Sequence record: MN850611.1
From: Escherichia phage nataliec
DNA length: 64,000 bases
Strand: one strand, 5' to 3'
Shown here: positions 37,674 to 47,767 of the stretch, one piece after another
How the letters are laid out: the number at the start of each line of letters is the position of its first letter
Position numbering within the stretch: position 1 is the first letter of the stretch
Program-made: the position numbers and the translations under genes
The notes under the pieces: model-generated
What the model was told of the DNA's origin: nothing
The model's database searches: none
The model's input: the letters and a program-made list of their open reading frames with translations, nothing else

Positions 37674-38177
37674 TCAACTTAGTTTTGCAAACTCTCCGTG
37701 GAGTTTTACAGCAGCTTCACAGTAAGCTTTATGGGCTTCTTCAGGGGTGTCAAATAAGCCAAGTGATGTCCTTTTACCTCTACATGTTATAGCAGCCCTC
37801 CATTTATTACAGTCTTTAAAGTAATGCACACCCTTGTAACCTGATTTGTTAGCTGTCTGCTTCACCCTGTTTTGGGCGTTTCCATACTTATCAGTCTCCC
37901 TAAGATTAGAGATATGATTATTACTCCTGTTACCATCAATGTGGTCTATCATCTTAGTGGGCCTGTAACCATGTTCGAACCACCAAACGAGGTGATGAAC
38001 TTTTATTACGACACCTTTGAATTTAAGTACTTTGTAACCATAAGCATCACTTCCTCCGGCAACCTGTCCAGCTTTAGCTTGTCTATTCCTGTCATACTTG
38101 TTGTAGAAGACCCCTTTGTCGGGGTCGTAAATAAAATTATCCTTGTAATCTTGAAGTGTTAGTGTACGGCGTACCAT
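37674..38177 (-). CDS. HNH homing endonuclease with AP2-like DNA-binding domain
   Basis: 'HHLVWWFEHGYRPTKMIDHIDGNRSNNHISNLR' HNH_3-type motif; C-terminal 'YKGVHYFKDCNKWRAAI...LGLFDTPEEA' AP2-like. Confidence 0.7.
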   Translation of the reverse strand: MVRRTLTLQDYKDNFIYDPDKGVFYNKYDRNRQAKAGQVAGGSDAYGYKVLKFKGVVIKVHHLVWWFEHGYRPTKMIDHIDGNRSNNHISNLRETDKYGNAQNRVKQTANKSGYKGVHYFKDCNKWRAAITCRGKRTSLGLFDTPEEAHKAYCEAAVKLHGEFAKLS

Positions 38178-40888
38178 GTCTTACCTACCTTACCAGTGCC
38201 TGTAACAAGTGTCTTACTCTTTAATCCAAGATTTTTTGATGCTTGACCATACATTCTATCAATAATCTCCTTAACATCAGGTACATCTTTTGTTGGAACC
38301 TCTAAAGAGACCTCATCGTGGTAACTACAGACCCACCTAGCACCAATAGCTGGTTTCCTACCATTTAGGACTGTAAGCTTGCGCTCTGTTAACTCTCTGT
38401 TAGCCAAGTTAATACCCTCATTCTGCACCTGAGCCTCACTGCCCATAAGTGTGTAATTCAATAACTTATGTGGAGATTTACACCATAACCACGCTCCAGC
38501 AACTTTGATGTACCCACCTTTCGCAATTGCAGAAGTTTTTCCAAAAACCTCTTCAAGTGCTTTCTTAGTTGCTTTGAAGTCTTCCTCTAGTCTATCAAGC
38601 AGCTTTTTAATCTTAGGGAGACGCACAAAGTAAGTTTGTTTAGTCAATGCACCTTCTTCCGTAGATGATGCCTTGATAGTTTTTGCAAACTTCTCGTCTC
38701 CGGCTCCAAATAATAGGGCGTAGATACCATTCTTAGCCTTCTTACGGCCTTTTGTAATCTCGTGAAGAAGTTCCTCATCCTGTGTCTCCCTACAACGAAC
38801 AATATCTTCTTCCTTGTTCAGACCAAAGTAAATGCTGTTCAGTGTATGTGCATCAGTACCTGTGTAGACTTCATAGAGGTCATTCTCAGCATCATAACGC
38901 AGATACTTGTCAGTTTCTGGGTTAAGATACTTGTCAAGATGCTTGCAGTAGTATCTACCATCATCTTGCTTAGTGAACTCAACTGACTCTTTACCCTCAG
39001 TTACCGCTTTAGTGAAGTCTTCATCACCCATAAAGTTACAAAGAAGAACTAGCTGGGCTGAGTTTTGGTCTACGGAGATGATATCTGTACCATCTTCACA
39101 AGTCCACACCTCCCTCATAGGTGCTCCATAGACAGCAGCACCAGACGGTACGTTTACAATACCATACTGAGTCATACGTCCAGTTGAAGTACCAAATACC
39201 ATTGCACCAGCACTAAGGCGACCATCTGGACGAATCTGGTTCAACCAACCTTTTTCATCATCCTTTGAGTTCTCAATAGTTCTGCGTCTGTGCATCAAAG
39301 TGTAGTATTTCGCAATCTTCTGTCCAAGCTCACCTTCAATCGTATCATAAGATGATTCAGTAAGTTTTGGTGAAGTACGGATTAAGCAAGGCTCAAGCAA
39401 ATCTGTGTACTTCTTCACAGACCAGTTATGTTCAATGTACTGTACACCTTCATGTTCAACATAACTCAAACCACACCGCTCAACCATTTCCTGCCACTTA
39501 GGATGCTTTGTAATCATCTTTTTATTGTCTTTGAAACGACAAACTTTGACAGGGCGACCATCTGAGTCTTTCTTGTAGTTCCAGTCATCTGGAATCCAAC
39601 CAACTGACTTCAAGTAGTCTTTAACAACTGCTACCTGAGTCATACGAGAAACTTCAAACTCAATTGGTGTATATGGTGCATCAATCAAACCTGTGTAGCG
39701 ACTTGACTCAAGTTCAAAGTGGTTAACAACGTGGCTGTTATAGTACTTCACAGTTTTGACTGTTTTTACTGGCTTCCAGTCTTTGCACTTCTTACCAATC
39801 TTTGCATTCAACTCATTGCAAATTGCACGAGCATCCTTCATTGCTACAAAACCTTCCTTGTATTCTTCACCAGTTACAGAGTTGGTTGGTGTATAGCAAT
39901 TCCGCTTTTCAATGTTAAAAATCTTTGTAGTTGGCTTACCAAATGGCTTGATTTCGTATGTCTGCATCTCACCGTTACGCACCTGTTGACGATACTTTGT
40001 CTTAGGATACTTGGTAATTCTCTTCAGTCCATCTGCATGACCGAATGTTTCAACATACTCATTCCAAGCTTTTGCAAACTCTTCTCCAGTGACTTTACCT
40101 TTGGTCTTAATAGTTGGAGGAAGGTGTGGTTCAACCTCTGAAGCAAGCTCATTAGTCAACTTGTCAAGTTCCTTTACATGGAACTCCATAAGCTCTTTAT
40201 CAGCTTTCCAACCATTGATAGCTTGTTGACTCATCCAGAAAGATGTTTCTTTAGCTCGCATGTAAGTCTCATAAGTGTCTATACCACACTTCTTAAGCTT
40301 GAGATACTCGTTATCAAGTGCCCGTTTAGTTTTGGCGTTAATACGGATATCTTCTACAACACGAGTGAAGATTTCTGCATTCCACACACCCCAATGTTCA
40401 ATCTCTGGTTTACGGACACCAACACGAGCACCCCATGCAGCCAAACCATGAGCACCTTTATAACCCTTTGGAGTTGGTCTATCCATCCACTGAACACGAG
40501 ACTGGATAAGAGAATCCTGAAAGAAATTACTCCACGGCTTACACTTTGGATTATCAAAGTTCCATAAATCAGGTGCAATGTGATTGAAAACCCACCAGTC
40601 ATAACCGAGACCGTTATGGATGCAAAGACGTTTTGCCTTTAGCGCAAACTCAATACCTTCACGTAAGCCACCCTTAATGTACTTAGTGTACTTGTGACCG
40701 AGGATAGGTTCATCTGTAAAGACCCATACAGGTGGCTCTTCATCGTCAGATTTATAGTCTGCGAAAGCCATTACGTGCACTTTAGTGAACTCAAGGAGTA
40801 AACCATCAGTTTCTGTATCACCAACCAAATGTAAGTTTTTAAAATCTACGTTTTCCATTTTTACTCCCTCTAAAATCATTAACCTCAT
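38159..40888 (-). CDS. DNA polymerase, family A, with N-terminal 3'-5' exonuclease-like domain
   Basis: 909 aa; motif B-like 'KKAKNGIYALLFGAG', motif C 'SYHDEVSLEV'. Confidence 0.8.
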   Translation of the reverse strand: MRLMILEGVKMENVDFKNLHLVGDTETDGLLLEFTKVHVMAFADYKSDDEEPPVWVFTDEPILGHKYTKYIKGGLREGIEFALKAKRLCIHNGLGYDWWVFNHIAPDLWNFDNPKCKPWSNFFQDSLIQSRVQWMDRPTPKGYKGAHGLAAWGARVGVRKPEIEHWGVWNAEIFTRVVEDIRINAKTKRALDNEYLKLKKCGIDTYETYMRAKETSFWMSQQAINGWKADKELMEFHVKELDKLTNELASEVEPHLPPTIKTKGKVTGEEFAKAWNEYVETFGHADGLKRITKYPKTKYRQQVRNGEMQTYEIKPFGKPTTKIFNIEKRNCYTPTNSVTGEEYKEGFVAMKDARAICNELNAKIGKKCKDWKPVKTVKTVKYYNSHVVNHFELESSRYTGLIDAPYTPIEFEVSRMTQVAVVKDYLKSVGWIPDDWNYKKDSDGRPVKVCRFKDNKKMITKHPKWQEMVERCGLSYVEHEGVQYIEHNWSVKKYTDLLEPCLIRTSPKLTESSYDTIEGELGQKIAKYYTLMHRRRTIENSKDDEKGWLNQIRPDGRLSAGAMVFGTSTGRMTQYGIVNVPSGAAVYGAPMREVWTCEDGTDIISVDQNSAQLVLLCNFMGDEDFTKAVTEGKESVEFTKQDDGRYYCKHLDKYLNPETDKYLRYDAENDLYEVYTGTDAHTLNSIYFGLNKEEDIVRCRETQDEELLHEITKGRKKAKNGIYALLFGAGDEKFAKTIKASSTEEGALTKQTYFVRLPKIKKLLDRLEEDFKATKKALEEVFGKTSAIAKGGYIKVAGAWLWCKSPHKLLNYTLMGSEAQVQNEGINLANRELTERKLTVLNGRKPAIGARWVCSYHDEVSLEVPTKDVPDVKEIIDRMYGQASKNLGLKSKTLVTGTGKVGKTWYAVH

Positions 40889-43153: not shown

Positions 43154-43354
43154 ATGAAGATGAGAGTAAAAGACAATTTTAAAGTTATTGACCACCGTTT
43201 AGTGGAACTCTCATCTCTTTCCAATGAGGTAATGATTGAACGTCTTAAGAGAGTTGAATCACGAAGGAAAGAGATTGCAGATGAAATTCATGAACTGGAC
43301 AAGATTGAAAATGGATTGAAGGCAGAACTACAACGAAGAGGTGCTAATGTCTAA
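43154..43354 (+). CDS. hypothetical small coiled-coil protein
   Basis: track ORF. Confidence 0.4.
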   Translation: MKMRVKDNFKVIDHRLVELSSLSNEVMIERLKRVESRRKEIADEIHELDKIENGLKAELQRRGANV

Positions 43355-45332
43355 AGGTCGTAAATTGAAAGAGGCTGGTCAGTTTGTTGGTCATTGTGCA
43401 TGTCCACGTTGTGGTTCATCAGATGCTGGTTCAATCTATCATCATGACGATGATTCTTATTCGATGACTTGCTTTAGTTGTAACAAAGGTTTCCCAGAGT
43501 GGGATTTTGATAAAGGACAAATCGTGAGCACTTATTCTACTGGTTCAGACAATAAAAACCGTACTTTCCGTGGGATGGATTTAGACGATGTAAAAGACAA
43601 CCTTGAAGCAATGGACTTAAAGGACAGGAAGATTCCTGCAAAAGTTCTTGAGCGTTTGGGTATCAAGGTTGACATTGATAGTGACGGTGAAATTGATGCG
43701 CATTTCTACCCAACTTACAAACGCAATGAAGATGGCAAGCTAGAGCATGTTGGCTACCGTGTTCGTCACCGTTACCCAGAAGACCATCCAAAAGAGCACC
43801 TACGCGGTAAGTTAAAAGACTTTTCTGGTGGTGTTGGAGATATTAAAGGTGAACTGGCAATGTTCGGTTCATGGATTGCTCCAGAAGGTGGTAACCGCCT
43901 ATTCATCTGGGAAGGTGAGATGGAATGTGCGACAGCAATCTATATGACTTCTCTTGCGATTAAGGACAAGTCTCGTCGTAAGAATTACTGTCACGTATCT
44001 GTTCCATCAGGTGCAAACATCAAGTCTATCAAAGATAACTATCAGTACATTACATCATTTGATGAAATTTACTTGTGCTTTGATAACGATGAAGCAGGTG
44101 CTAAAGCCACTAAAGAGGCTGCTGGTATCCTACCTATTGAGAAGGTTCGTTTATTCCAGTATCCAGAAGGTGTAAAAGACCTTAATGAATGGTGGACAAA
44201 GTTCTATAAAGAGAAAGATACAGTTCTGGAAGGATTTAAGCAGCGTATCTACAATGCACCTCGTTACTGTCCTGCTGGTATCAAGAACTTCGCAGATGGT
44301 TTTGAGGCAATGAAGAATCGTGGTCAGATTCCATTGATTCCTTTCCCAGAATCTTTCGGAGATTTGAACAGGCTGACTTATGGCGGTTACGGTTTAGGTG
44401 AGATTACAACTCTGGCAGCACCATCTTCAGTGGGTAAATCAGCATACACTCGTGAAATGATTTATACTGCTTGGAAAGATACCGATTACAATATTGGTGT
44501 AATTCCTGTAGAGGATACCTATGAAGAGTTGATGGAGATGCTCTGTGCAATCCACCTTAGCAAGCAGATTTCTGAGATTCCTTATGACGAACGTGATTGG
44601 GATGAATTGAAGGAAGCACACGCAGAACTATCTAAAGGTCGTCGTATCCACATCGTTGACCATCAAGGGGCAATTGACCAAGATAACTTGCTGGAATTTG
44701 TTGACTATCTTGTTAACAGTTTAGACTGTAAGATTATTATTCTTGACCCTATTACGTTGGCTCTGTCACGTTCAGATACGGATGAAGAGGAAGTTTTGTC
44801 TGAGCTATTGCGTCGTTGCAAACGCTACCAGTATGCACAGGTGAACGTCTGTCACGTTCGTAAGAGTGCAGGTGGTCAGAAGGCTAACTCTGAAGGTGGA
44901 GATATCTCTGAAGAGGATATTAAAGGCTCTGGTGCGTATTTCCAGATTTCTATGAACAACATTCTGTTAATGCGTAACAAGGTTGACCCAGACCCTGTTA
45001 AGAAAAACTTGACAAAAATCAAGTTAACTAAATGTCGTCGTCACGGTAAGTCAACTGGTATTGCTGGACACACTTGGTACAATCCAGATACAGGACGCCT
45101 CATTAAAGCATCTGGTTGTGGAGTTGACATTGATGGTGCAGCAGAAAATATTCGCCAACAGTTTGGTATTGGTGAAGCTGAAGACCATTACGATGACTCT
45201 TTGCCACATTATGAGGATGAAGTGTTTGACCGTGAGACTGGTGAAGTCTATACTGAAGAGCAGCGTCAAAGCTCAACGATTCCACCTGTATTAAGTGAGG
45301 ATGCAGATGACTGCCCATTCGAAACTGAGTGA
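43341..45332 (+). CDS. DNA primase-helicase (T7 gp4-like bifunctional)
   Basis: N-terminal Cys4 zinc ribbon (CPRCGSSD...CFSCN), central primase-like region, C-terminal DnaB-type Walker A 'APSSVGKSAYT'. Confidence 0.75.
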   Translation: MLMSKGRKLKEAGQFVGHCACPRCGSSDAGSIYHHDDDSYSMTCFSCNKGFPEWDFDKGQIVSTYSTGSDNKNRTFRGMDLDDVKDNLEAMDLKDRKIPAKVLERLGIKVDIDSDGEIDAHFYPTYKRNEDGKLEHVGYRVRHRYPEDHPKEHLRGKLKDFSGGVGDIKGELAMFGSWIAPEGGNRLFIWEGEMECATAIYMTSLAIKDKSRRKNYCHVSVPSGANIKSIKDNYQYITSFDEIYLCFDNDEAGAKATKEAAGILPIEKVRLFQYPEGVKDLNEWWTKFYKEKDTVLEGFKQRIYNAPRYCPAGIKNFADGFEAMKNRGQIPLIPFPESFGDLNRLTYGGYGLGEITTLAAPSSVGKSAYTREMIYTAWKDTDYNIGVIPVEDTYEELMEMLCAIHLSKQISEIPYDERDWDELKEAHAELSKGRRIHIVDHQGAIDQDNLLEFVDYLVNSLDCKIIILDPITLALSRSDTDEEEVLSELLRRCKRYQYAQVNVCHVRKSAGGQKANSEGGDISEEDIKGSGAYFQISMNNILLMRNKVDPDPVKKNLTKIKLTKCRRHGKSTGIAGHTWYNPDTGRLIKASGCGVDIDGAAENIRQQFGIGEAEDHYDDSLPHYEDEVFDRETGEVYTEEQRQSSTIPPVLSEDADDCPFETE

Positions 45333-45402
45333 TAGTTATAAAAGAGAGAGGTTCATACCCTTCTTTGAAGAAAAAAGTTTAAATAAATTTCAGGAAGAGT
45401 GT

Positions 45403-45431
45403 TTGACAAAGGTTGATAGGTTCTATAGAAT
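45403..45431 (+). promoter_or_regulatory. sigma70-like promoter TTGACA-17-TAGAAT
   Basis: exact -35 and near-consensus -10, 17-nt spacer. Confidence 0.5.
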
Positions 45432-45584
45432 GCTCTACATGAAATGTGATGGTGGTGTCGAAGTAGAGAAAAAGTCCTATCACAATACTGTCACAGTCAT
45501 CATCACTATGCCTGAACATAATATTGGTTGGCTGTTTGTAATAAAAGAAAATGTGTTTGAATATCAAGTATATCGGAGAATATC

Positions 45585-45734
45585 ATGAAACACTCTAAAG
45601 CATTTGAAAAAGTTTTTGGGGATTCTTTAAAAGCCACTGCTGGAAAACCAGCAAAATACTATGAAGAGAAGCGTGTAAGAACTGGAAAAACTGCACGTAA
45701 AGCAACTTCTAAAGATAAGCACAACTTCCAGTAA
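45585..45734 (+). CDS. small lysine-rich basic protein (49 aa)
   Basis: ATG with GGAGA RBS; not in ORF track (below 60 aa); between two promoters. Confidence 0.35.
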   Translation: MKHSKAFEKVFGDSLKATAGKPAKYYEEKRVRTGKTARKATSKDKHNFQ

Positions 45735-45741
45735 TTAATGT

Positions 45742-45770
45742 TTGACAATAGAGTATCAACAAATTAGAAT
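45742..45770 (+). promoter_or_regulatory. sigma70-like promoter TTGACA-17-TAGAAT
   Basis: same architecture as 45403-45431; upstream of SSB-like gene. Confidence 0.5.
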
Positions 45771-45806
45771 TGGTACTCTTCATAAATTGAGATAGAGGTT
45801 TAAATA

Positions 45807-46664
45807 ATGTCTAAAGTTGTTAAAATGAAAGCTCCGGTAGAGAAGTACAACGGTACTGAACGTCAAACTCTGCGTTACCTTCTGAAAGATGTCTGGTTTT
45901 ATTACCTGAACACTTCACCACGTCCGGGAAAAGGTAAGTCCATTGATAAGAAATTCCCAGGCAAAGACTGTAACTACAGCGTTTCAATTCTGGCAGAAGA
46001 TGGTAACAAGCTGTTTAAAGAGTTTACTAAGTCTAAGAAAAACCCAGAAGGTTGGGATAAAGTTACTACTGAAGCAGTTGATGCAGATGACTTCGAAGAG
46101 AAGTTTGGTTGCAAACCACCATTTGAAGCAGATACTTACTACATCTTGAAAGTAAGTCGTGCAGCAGCTTATAAAGATGGTGCTGTGTGGACAGCTAAAC
46201 AGTCATTCCCTGTAATGCTGATTGAAGAAGTAAATGGTAAGCGTGTAGCTGTTAAACAGCCGATGAAGAAAATCAAAGCTCAAGCATCTGACAAACATGA
46301 AGATGATAAGAACTATGATGTAATTCATCCAGATATTGCAGTTGGTAACGGTTCTTTTGGTAGTGTGATTCTCTCTACTCACTTCTACACTTTTGAGAAT
46401 AACGTTCTGACAAAACCTATTCAGGAACAGTTTATCATTGATACTCTTGTACCTTACACTGGTGGTAACGGTGCTAACGGTGAACCTGAACTGGATGAAG
46501 ATGAACTGGCTATGCTTGGTCTTGATGGCGTTGAAGATAACGGTGAAATCACTGAAGAAGATGCAACAGACCACAAACCTTCGAATGACTCTGATGATGG
46601 TGATGACGAAGACTTGCCGGACCCAGATGACGAAGAAGATGAAGACTTCGATACAGAAGACTAA
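45807..46664 (+). CDS. single-stranded DNA-binding protein (putative), acidic C-terminal tail
   Basis: C-terminal ~45 aa dominated by D/E (…DDGDDEDLPDPDDEEDEDFDTED); located in replication block. Confidence 0.5.
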   Translation: MSKVVKMKAPVEKYNGTERQTLRYLLKDVWFYYLNTSPRPGKGKSIDKKFPGKDCNYSVSILAEDGNKLFKEFTKSKKNPEGWDKVTTEAVDADDFEEKFGCKPPFEADTYYILKVSRAAAYKDGAVWTAKQSFPVMLIEEVNGKRVAVKQPMKKIKAQASDKHEDDKNYDVIHPDIAVGNGSFGSVILSTHFYTFENNVLTKPIQEQFIIDTLVPYTGGNGANGEPELDEDELAMLGLDGVEDNGEITEEDATDHKPSNDSDDGDDEDLPDPDDEEDEDFDTED

Positions 46665-46682
46665 TCTCTAAAAGTTACTTTA

Positions 46683-46710
46683 AAGCCCTGTACTTAGTAT
46701 GGGGCTTTTT
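46683..46710 (+). terminator. Rho-independent terminator
   Basis: agccc...gggct hairpin + TTTTT. Confidence 0.45.
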
Positions 46711-46726
46711 CATATGGAGAGCCATA

Positions 46727-47767
46727 ATGGAGAAGTACACATTAACAAAGCTTCCCGATTCAGTTACACATGTCTTTATTGACTCTGACAGCATTGCCTA
46801 TAAAGGTGCTTGTGTAGTTGAGAAAGCAAAATATAAATACGTCAATAAACTCACAGCAGAAGAATCTGAGCCATTTGATAATGCGAAAGATGCTGCAAGA
46901 TGGTTAGCAGACCAGAGAATCCTTGTGGAAGAGCTTGGCCTGACATTTGATGAAGATGAATGGGAAAGACAGACTTGGAAAGAAGCTAAGAGTGAAAAAG
47001 AAGCTATCATGGCTACTCAACAGGTGCTTCAGGAATGGCTTAAGGTTGTTGGTAAAGAAAGAACTTGGGTAGGTTATTTAACAGAGAAAGGTGTGCATAA
47101 ACATAAAGATATTAAAGGTCTTGAGCACCAATATCAAGGTAACCGTAAAGATGCTGTCACACCAACACACTTAGTTGCTTGTCGTGAGTATCTTCTGTCA
47201 AGACCAGAGTTCAAACTCTTAAAGGGGGGCTTCGAAGCCGATTCAATCGTAATTGCTAAAGCTGAAAAGATGGGTAAGAAAGCTGCTCTTATGAGTATTG
47301 ACAAAGACCTTCGACAAGCTGAAGGAACTTATTGTATTGATATGACTTATGAAAAGTCACCACTAATTTTTATTGCTGACAATAATGTTGGTGATATCTG
47401 GGATTGTCCTATCAAATCAAAACCAAAAGCTGCAAAAACAGTTGGTGTAGGTTTTAAATTCTTGTGTTATCAGGCTGTTGCTGGAGATAATGCAGACAAC
47501 TACTTTGGCCTTAAAGGTGCTGGTAAAGTAGCTGTGATGAATGCTTTAGAGGGTAAAGAGACCTACAAAGAGTGTCTTGACGCTATCTATGAACTCTATG
47601 CTAAAAAAGACTCTTATACCTATGTGTCATGGGATGGACAGACTGTTACAAAGACACCGTTAGAGTTAATGGAACAGCATTTCTGGGTGGCATATCAAGA
47701 GAGAAATCCAAAAGATAATTTCTCTTTTAAGAAATATAATTGGGAGCCGTGTATGAATGAAGATTAA
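46727..47767 (+). CDS. 5'-3' exonuclease / flap endonuclease (FEN-like)
   Basis: 'FIDSDS', 'GFEADSIVIA', 'SIDKDL', H3TH-like 'GLKGAGKVAVMNAL'. Confidence 0.6.
   Translation: MEKYTLTKLPDSVTHVFIDSDSIAYKGACVVEKAKYKYVNKLTAEESEPFDNAKDAARWLADQRILVEELGLTFDEDEWERQTWKEAKSEKEAIMATQQVLQEWLKVVGKERTWVGYLTEKGVHKHKDIKGLEHQYQGNRKDAVTPTHLVACREYLLSRPEFKLLKGGFEADSIVIAKAEKMGKKAALMSIDKDLRQAEGTYCIDMTYEKSPLIFIADNNVGDIWDCPIKSKPKAAKTVGVGFKFLCYQAVAGDNADNYFGLKGAGKVAVMNALEGKETYKECLDAIYELYAKKDSYTYVSWDGQTVTKTPLELMEQHFWVAYQERNPKDNFSFKKYNWEPCMNED

Follow-up and report, generated by a model that had tools for sequence, protein, structure and literature searches.

A predicted gp2.5-type single-stranded DNA-binding protein and an adjoining two-gene cassette in the replication module of Escherichia phage nataliec

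We analyzed a stretch of 64,000 nucleotides (the window) from Escherichia phage nataliec (record MN850611.1), concentrating on a gene for a lysine-rich protein of 49 amino acids (aa) and on the gene for a 285-aa protein that follows it. Together with a 95-aa gene and several predicted expression signals, these genes lie between a primase/helicase gene and an exonuclease gene. We consider it likely that the region forms the core of a T7-style replication module with three components: a protein that binds single-stranded DNA (an SSB), encoded by the 285-aa gene, an accessory cassette made up of the 95-aa and 49-aa genes, and a unit in which the SSB gene stands between a promoter (P2) and a terminator. 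In a nucleotide search, the 1.45 kb around the 49-aa open reading frame (ORF) was 99.4% identical to Escherichia phage JohannRWettstein (Bas63) and 96-98% identical to many other Felixounavirus genomes, with matches in 255 phage records; on this similarity, the window belongs to Felixounavirus, the Felix O1-like coliphages. The features of the locus are listed below.

45807 to 46481, plus strand: core of the 285-aa gene (residues 1-225, isoelectric point (pI) 8.8), predicted to encode an OB fold, with a conserved IGNGS motif
46482 to 46664, plus strand: the 285-aa gene's acidic C-terminal tail
45585 to 45734, plus strand: gene for the 49-aa lysine-rich protein (Felix O1 gene 103, Bas63 gene 54, phrog_4424)
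45575 to 45579, plus strand: ribosome-binding site (RBS) GGAGA of the 49-aa gene, 5 nt upstream of its ATG
45301 to 45588, plus strand: 95-aa gene (Bas63 gene 53, Felix O1 gene 102; phrog_4982, E 4e-46)
45403 to 45431, plus strand: P1, a promoter-like site of the sigma-70 type (TTGACA-17-TAGAAT) within the 95-aa gene
45742 to 45770, plus strand: P2, a predicted intergenic sigma-70-type promoter, TTGACA-17-TAGAAT, annotated as a promoter in phage ASO1A
45794 to 45798, plus strand: RBS AGAGG of the SSB gene
46682 to 46710, plus strand: intrinsic terminator of the SSB unit, with the 12-bp stem AAAGCCCUGUAC-UUA-GUAUGGGGCUUU (46682-46708)

An earlier reading of the sequence alone (the original prediction) had called the 285-aa protein SSB-like, and profile and fold comparisons both point to the gp2.5 superfamily. 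Searched directly, the protein matched only phrog_3877, a family of "unknown function"; it had no Pfam or NCBIfam match, and a phmmer search against the PDB was empty. The relationship emerges through shorter proteins. A profile of 12 Ounavirinae homologues, run against 1.8 billion representative sequences, retrieved 64 proteins, mostly of 200-240 aa. When the Ounavirinae-only profile was aligned with a profile of 21 of these shorter proteins, hhalign returned a probability of 99.9 and an E-value of 5.8e-34 across residues 22-223. The profile of the 21 short relatives alone matches T7 gp2.5 (1je5) at E 3.2e-8, with the IGNGS strand aligned to IGGGSK, and 18 of the 21 members match phrog_112. 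Sequence homology with the gp2.5 family is, by this route, indirect but strong.

The AlphaFold (AF2) model of the 285-aa protein has a predicted local distance difference test (pLDDT) score of 68, with 163 residues at 70-90. Its top nine Foldseek matches in the PDB are all gp2.5-class SSBs, including the DUF2815 protein 4klk (E 2e-4), the Enc34 SSB (5odj, 5odl and 5odk), T7 gp2.5 (1je5) and 4jg2, with E-values from 2e-4 to 2e-2 and target-normalised template modelling scores (TM-scores) of 0.35-0.55. In BFVD, the named neighbours included "DNA helix destabilizing protein", "ssDNA-binding" and DUF2815 proteins. A gp2.5-type OB-fold core is predicted with medium confidence, because the model itself is only moderately confident. 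Relative to the 200-240-aa relatives, this core carries an insertion of about 28 residues (about 146-173; window 46242-46325; VAVKQPMKKIKAQASDKHEDDKNYDV...), where model confidence is low.

The acidic tail noted in the original prediction is present. Aspartate and glutamate make up 25 of the last 45 and 32 of the last 60 residues, with a single lysine or arginine and a net charge of -31, and residues 1-225 are mildly basic. Phenylalanine 281 is invariant in the 12 aligned homologues; the homologue from Hafnia phage SarahDanielle, examined separately, has tryptophan at this position (...DDEWETN). Functional evidence comes from PhageMaP, a published knockout screen of Bas63 (bioRxiv 10.1101/2024.10.10.617714), from which we used four data sheets: two for laboratory hosts and two of the twelve for defence systems. 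In every sheet used, gene 55, which encodes the 285-aa protein, had negative fitness (-0.5 to -2.4), like the DNA polymerase and primase/helicase genes. Within these data the 285-aa protein is essential for Bas63 growth, and we infer a specific role in replication; identity as an SSB would explain the essentiality of gene 55.

The profile chain, the Foldseek matches, the acidic tail with its invariant phenylalanine and the essentiality together argue that the 285-aa protein is a divergent T7 gp2.5-class ssDNA-binding and annealing protein, as predicted from sequence and model. Several points weigh against this assignment. It depends on intermediate proteins and on a model of medium confidence, whose TM-scores against solved structures are only 0.35-0.55, and no member of the 285-aa family directly matches phrog_112, the Pfam family Enc34_ssDNA-bd or NCBIfam. 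A direct hhalign comparison of the Ounavirinae profile with the T7 gp2.5 sequence gave a probability of 27% over 25 columns and is not relied on; residues 94-195 of the gp2.5 sequence used there agree with the 1je5 segments. Additionally, the conserved phenylalanine lies five residues from the end rather than being the last residue, as it is in T7.

The protein might also be essential for replication without being the replicative SSB, either as a subunit of the primase/helicase or as a pure single-strand annealing recombinase. The former would fit its manual label in the PhageMaP sheets, "DNA helicase/primase*", and its annotation as "putative DNA primase/helicase" in JLBYU28 (OK272472.1); the latter would fit the exonuclease gene directly downstream and the finding that gp2.5-family proteins are also annealing proteins (PMC2896510). 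However, no helicase, primase or NTPase motif or domain was found with Pfam or NCBIfam, every fold and profile match is a gp2.5-class SSB, and an acidic tail is characteristic of SSBs. Moreover, one would not expect a pure recombinase to match the polymerase in essentiality in recA+ laboratory hosts. The helicase/primase labels are probably carried over from the neighbouring gene, since no such domain is detectable in the 285-aa protein, and we regard both alternatives as improbable. We favour the gp2.5-type SSB, whose core would, as inferred from T7, coat ssDNA at the replication fork while its tail would dock on the family-A DNA polymerase. It would also anneal ssDNA and cooperate with the adjacent exonuclease in recombination.

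This assignment appears to be missing from public annotation. A tblastn search with the 285-aa protein matched 301 records; among the 60 listed, the gene product is a "hypothetical protein" except in unannotated records and in one that names a primase/helicase. The Felix O1 genome paper (PMC3185647) names no SSB, and a text search of it for one gave no matches.

The SSB gene sits among genes of the same T7-like type, and a further promoter-like site lies upstream:

43341 to 45332, plus strand: T7 gp4-type primase/helicase gene (phrog_239, E 4e-184; Pfam Toprim_2 and DnaB_C)
46727 to 47767, plus strand: T7 gp6-type 5'-3' exonuclease gene (phrog_107, E 5.7e-64; exodeoxyribonuclease in annotated relatives)
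38159 to 40888, minus strand: family-A DNA polymerase gene, encoded in the window
45226 to 45254, plus strand: promoter-like site TTGACC-17-TATACT in the 3' end of the primase/helicase gene, predicted only

The primase/helicase gene corresponds to bas63_0052, whose annotated start falls at window position 43347, and it is essential in Bas63 according to the PhageMaP sheets. In annotated relatives the local order is constant: deoxynucleoside monophosphate kinase, a small gene, primase/helicase, a gene of about 93 aa, one of about 46-49 aa, the gene of about 285 aa and the exodeoxyribonuclease. Recognition of the SSB would complete the replisome list with a family-A polymerase, a gp4-like helicase-primase, a gp2.5-like SSB and a gp6-like exonuclease. 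As a whole, the module is an ordinary T7-style one, and the product of the analysis is a useful re-annotation. We also observed that the records of "Campylobacter phage A132/A126" (MG065664.1, MG065668.1; host C. jejuni) and one Staphylococcus-named record are about 96% identical to this region; these are probably mislabelled or contaminant sequences.

The SSB gene would form a self-contained, high-expression unit comprising P2, the RBS, the 285-aa gene and the intrinsic terminator. As originally predicted, TTGACA-17-TAGAAT sites are present at 45403-45431 and 45742-45770; these are the only two in the 64-kb window, and both are on the plus strand. Shuffled sequences give an expectation of 0.02 sites per window, and none of 100 shuffles contained at least two. 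The further description of the two sites as near-identical twins holds for the hexamers, the spacing and a flanking TGTT, but not for the spacers, which agree at only 4 of 17 bases (16 of 29 positions overall). With so few spacer bases shared, P1 and P2 are two good consensus matches and not a duplication of one another. They also differ in setting, with P1 lying inside a gene and being intact only within the genus, whereas P2 is intergenic and found throughout the subfamily.

P2 occurs as TTGACA-17-TAGAAT, TAAGAT or TAACAT in each of the 12 genomes compared; phiEa21-4 and a phi63_307-like contig carry the variant TTGCAA-17-TAAGAT, and the Hafnia phage has a TTGACT-17-TAAGT-type site. As predicted sites, P2 combines the sequence of a sigma-70 promoter with conservation, whereas P1 has the sequence only and is intragenic. 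P2 is thus best read, from its sequence, as a putative dedicated promoter of the SSB gene. At the other end of the unit, the 3' arm of the terminator ends with the first three U's of a five-U run, and the structure has a fold energy of -19.6 kcal/mol (z = -3.0). The terminator is kept in every relative examined and is annotated as such in wV8, ASO1A and Moogle, so that P2 and the terminator are both conserved across the subfamily. A promoter-RBS-gene-terminator cassette would suit a protein needed in stoichiometric amounts. The site in the helicase gene, TTGACC(N17)TATACT, is "P102" of the Felix O1 genome paper (PMC3185647), which lists it alone of the three promoter-like sites; all three are stacked and point towards the single terminator at 46682-46710. 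A literature search on Felixounavirus transcriptomics found nothing relevant.

P1 is identical in six of six Felixounavirus genomes and weakened to TTGACT-17-TAAAGT in SUSP2, Sf19 and KMM2. The same weakened form was read by eye for Moogle from a five-sequence alignment, the site scan giving another best site there, and the scan of the compared genomes did not find P1 in PC79-13 or Wc4-1. The -35 hexamer overlaps conserved codons of the 95-aa gene, which had gone unmentioned in the original prediction. P1 could thus be no working promoter but a by-product of coding, with the codons for ECLTK yielding TTGACA and the 49-aa gene being expressed through read-through and translational coupling. The position of P1 within a conserved ORF, where the -35 hexamer encodes conserved residues, agrees with this, as does the decay of the site, which matches at 9 of 12 positions in Suspvirus and Mooglevirus and is absent from PC79-13 and Wc4-1, where the 49-aa gene nevertheless persists; annotators who listed P2 in ASO1A left P1 out. 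On the other hand, the expectation per window for 11 of 12 matching bases at 17-bp spacing is 0.02, and the site does not vary among the six Felixounavirus genomes, despite the many substitutions that the gene around it tolerates. We consider the coding by-product a serious possibility, somewhat short of even. If P1 is active, it may be at most a genus-specific internal promoter that would add transcripts for the 49-aa gene and the SSB.

The helicase and the SSB share a feature at their C-termini. Among ORFs of at least 50 aa in all six frames of the whole window, only the primase/helicase (45303-45332) and the SSB (46635-46664) end in F-x-T-[DE]. The helicase C-terminus is acidic as well (...DADDCPFETE), and the F-x-T-E ending co-varies between the two proteins across lineages:

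Felix O1 type: helicase end CPFETE, SSB end DFDTED
Wc4-1: helicase end GFQTE, SSB end GFQTE
phiEa21-4 and phi63_307-like: helicase end IPFRTE, SSB end VPFKTE

T7 gp4 and gp2.5 both have an acidic tail with a terminal phenylalanine, and the two tails use a common set of basic patches on their polymerase (PMC12339929, PMC10359462). By analogy, and because the primase/helicase carries the same co-varying F-x-T-E end as the SSB, the two tails probably dock at the same polymerase site in these phages. The helicase of the Hafnia phage lacks the F-x-T-E ending, which counts against this picture. From the co-variation follows a testable prediction of what holds the replisome together.

The 49-aa gene was the starting point of the original prediction, which had described it as a lysine-rich ORF with a GGAGA RBS. 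It is present as such: the peptide contains 11 lysines and 3 arginines, with a net charge of +9, a pI of 10.2 and a mass of about 5.6 kDa. It had also been called unannotated, which applies only to the ORF list available at that time; it is an annotated coding sequence in Bas63 (bas63_0054), wV8, ASO1A, Moogle, SUSP2, Wc4-1 and others. In Felix O1 it is gene 103, reported as a 49-aa product with a pI of 10.2 and no homologue, and genes 102 and 103 lie outside the set covered there by reverse transcription PCR (RT-PCR) (PMC3185647 supplement). The protein belongs to phrog_4424, matched at E 4.5e-35 over its full length (residues 1-49), with members of 44-50 aa and a locus between the 95-aa and SSB genes.

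Conservation in relatives, which had been proposed as a check on this ORF, is extensive. A tblastn search found the protein in 262 phage records from Felixounavirus, Suspvirus, Mooglevirus and Pectobacterium phages, mostly as a "hypothetical protein". Profile and single-sequence searches of 5.8 billion proteins recovered only Ounavirinae-type homologues of 44-50 aa, in 30 database clusters, plus one truncated to 30 aa. The family has a conserved core, SKAF-x-VFG-x-S-x-x-AT-x-GK...KR(V/I)RTGKTAR, and its last 5-10 residues are variable. Comparisons between genera show changes at about 20 of some 30 synonymous sites but at only 12-15 of some 105 non-synonymous ones. The ratio of non-synonymous to synonymous substitution rates (dN/dS) is 0.08-0.13 with synonymous sites saturated, similar to the 285-aa gene (0.07-0.16). 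The start overlaps the stop of the upstream 95-aa gene (ATGA at 45585-45588), and Felixounavirus, Suspvirus and Mooglevirus all keep this CGGAGA...ATGA junction. Because of the low dN/dS at saturated synonymous sites, the RBS and the ATGA overlap, we interpret the ORF, on comparative sequence evidence, as a genuine protein gene under strong purifying selection.

A chance open frame or non-coding spacer would be compatible with the shortness of the ORF, with the absence of a coding sequence there in the original 2003 Felix O1 record (AF320576) and with the absence of proteomic or RT-PCR support. The substitution pattern, however, effectively refutes this reading: synonymous changes far outpace non-synonymous ones, and the frame, start, RBS and length are kept in 262 records and 30 clusters. 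No Rfam family or conserved hairpin accounts for the conservation either. We consider a non-coding origin very remote, and the genuine gene stands as our reading. An RNA element was considered as a cause of the conservation and rejected: no Rfam family came near threshold across 45000-47000, and a hairpin at 45637-45654 is not kept in SUSP2 or Moogle. Two natural variants were also observed, P0084 (50 aa, on an 85,780-bp contig), which has a frameshifted C-terminus (...RTGKLHVKQLLKISTTSSN), and P0092 (30 aa), which is truncated; both fit the tail, or even the whole gene, being dispensable.

The two small genes appear to travel together. Neither occurs in Erwinia phage phiEa21-4, in Hafnia phage SarahDanielle or in the phi63_307-like contig, in all of which the helicase gene is followed by 102-116 bp with a promoter-like site and then by the 285-aa homologue. 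Because they are jointly missing between the helicase and SSB homologues of sister phages, the 95-aa and 49-aa genes are best explained as one accessory cassette inserted into a conserved helicase-SSB-exonuclease core, within which the ATGA overlap would couple their translation. The 95-aa ORF is intact in 12 phages and evolves far faster than the 49-aa gene, with a dN/dS of 0.6-0.7 between genera compared with about 0.1; the 95-aa protein has no match in Pfam, NCBIfam or the PDB, including by profile against the PDB. In the PhageMaP sheets used, gene 53 (95 aa) had positive fitness, indicating that it is dispensable, and gene 54 (49 aa) mostly had fitness values of +0.4 to +1.3 with one negative replicate. 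The 49-aa gene is thus non-essential in every host and defence condition covered. It is an accessory rather than a core factor, since laboratory growth does not require it and sister genera lack it, and it provides an example of a small phage protein that is strongly conserved yet dispensable. Kolesnikvirus and Hafnia relatives do without the 49-aa gene.

Regarding function, the original prediction had suggested a nucleoid-associated or DNA-mimic-binding factor, for which neither a family nor a fold match was found in Pfam, NCBIfam, PHROGs or Foldseek. The protein has no functional family in Pfam or NCBIfam, and in PHROGs it matches only the function-less phrog_4424. Its AF2 model (pLDDT 68) places helices at residues 5-18 and 23-32, with a further short one at 37-40 and a disordered basic end, and gave no Foldseek match. 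Searched as a profile against the PDB, the family had eL39 as its best, non-significant match (E 0.25), at RVRTGKTARKAAKK. Residues 30-43 (window 45670-45711), containing RVRTGKTARKA, are the most conserved stretch and resemble rRNA-binding eL39 (RLRTGNTIRYNAKR) at the same E-value; this resemblance is probably compositional.

From its charge and gene neighbourhood alone, we tentatively propose that the 49-aa protein binds a polyanion, which would be nucleic acid or else the acidic SSB and helicase tails, in a replication or recombination context and modulates these partners. The absence of a homologue of known function, a structural match or a knockout phenotype speaks against this proposal, and a host-directed accessory function is equally plausible. 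Under the latter, the 95-aa and 49-aa genes would be a host-takeover or anti-defence cassette placed in the replication operon only for early expression, with the 49-aa protein targeting a host factor. Small early phage proteins are commonly host inhibitors, and both genes here are dispensable in the laboratory hosts covered, occur together or are jointly missing from one genus to the next, and include a fast-evolving partner (the 95-aa gene), as arms-race proteins often are. In contrast, the 49-aa protein itself shows strong conservation (dN/dS about 0.1), which is not typical of arms-race proteins, and neither small gene has a functional family match in any library searched. The fitness of genes 53 and 54 is likewise positive in the two defence sheets; the defence-panel text of PhageMaP, as far as it was covered, does not name either as a counter or trigger, and a main-text search for gp53-gp55 or g53-g55 was empty. 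This host-directed explanation, too, is held only as a tentative possibility. A more specific form of the polyanion-binding proposal is doubtful in our view: the 49-aa protein would be an adaptor for the F-x-T-E tails, tuning polymerase docking or shielding SSB-ssDNA from SSB-sensing defences. As a separate point at the same strength, the co-varying tails would form a T7-like three-way docking code in a myovirus replisome.

The 285-aa gene is carried by about 300 sequenced Ounavirinae genomes, among them those of the BASEL model phage Bas63 and of Felix O1, a phage with a use in Salmonella diagnostics (PMC3185647). There are reports of phage SSBs as activators of bacterial defence systems (for example bioRxiv 10.64898/2026.02.22.705581), and the predicted 285-aa SSB may be worth testing in this capacity.

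Among known systems, the closest comparison for the 285-aa protein is T7 gp2.5 (1je5), together with phrog_112, the Enc34 ORF6 SSB and PF10991 (DUF2815), with which it shares a predicted OB-fold core, a profile-level relationship and a long acidic tail with an aromatic residue. Like T7 gp2.5, it is essential; the genes next to its own encode a gp4-type primase/helicase and a gp6-type exonuclease, and the phage also has a family-A polymerase. It differs from T7 gp2.5 in its length (285 aa versus 232 aa) and longer tail, and from its shorter relatives in the insertion of about 28 residues. Its phenylalanine is followed by x-T-E(D), whereas that of T7 gp2.5 is C-terminal, and it has no direct match to curated family models. 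It comes, furthermore, from a myovirus that uses the host RNA polymerase. The helicase and SSB tails resemble those of T7 gp4 and gp2.5, which dock on gp5/thioredoxin, in that both end acidic with the same co-varying aromatic motif. They differ in the motif itself, F-x-T-[DE] here versus a terminal D-x-D-F, and in the Hafnia phage helicase without the motif. The 49-aa protein is a member of phrog_4424 with Felix O1 gp103, of the same size, position and pI. Finally, T4 gene 32 encodes an abundant SSB from a dedicated promoter behind upstream promoters and has its own terminator. The unit described here is similar, with a dedicated predicted promoter stacked behind upstream promoter-like sites and a terminator of its own, although the two SSBs belong to different fold families and nothing at this locus points to translational autoregulation.

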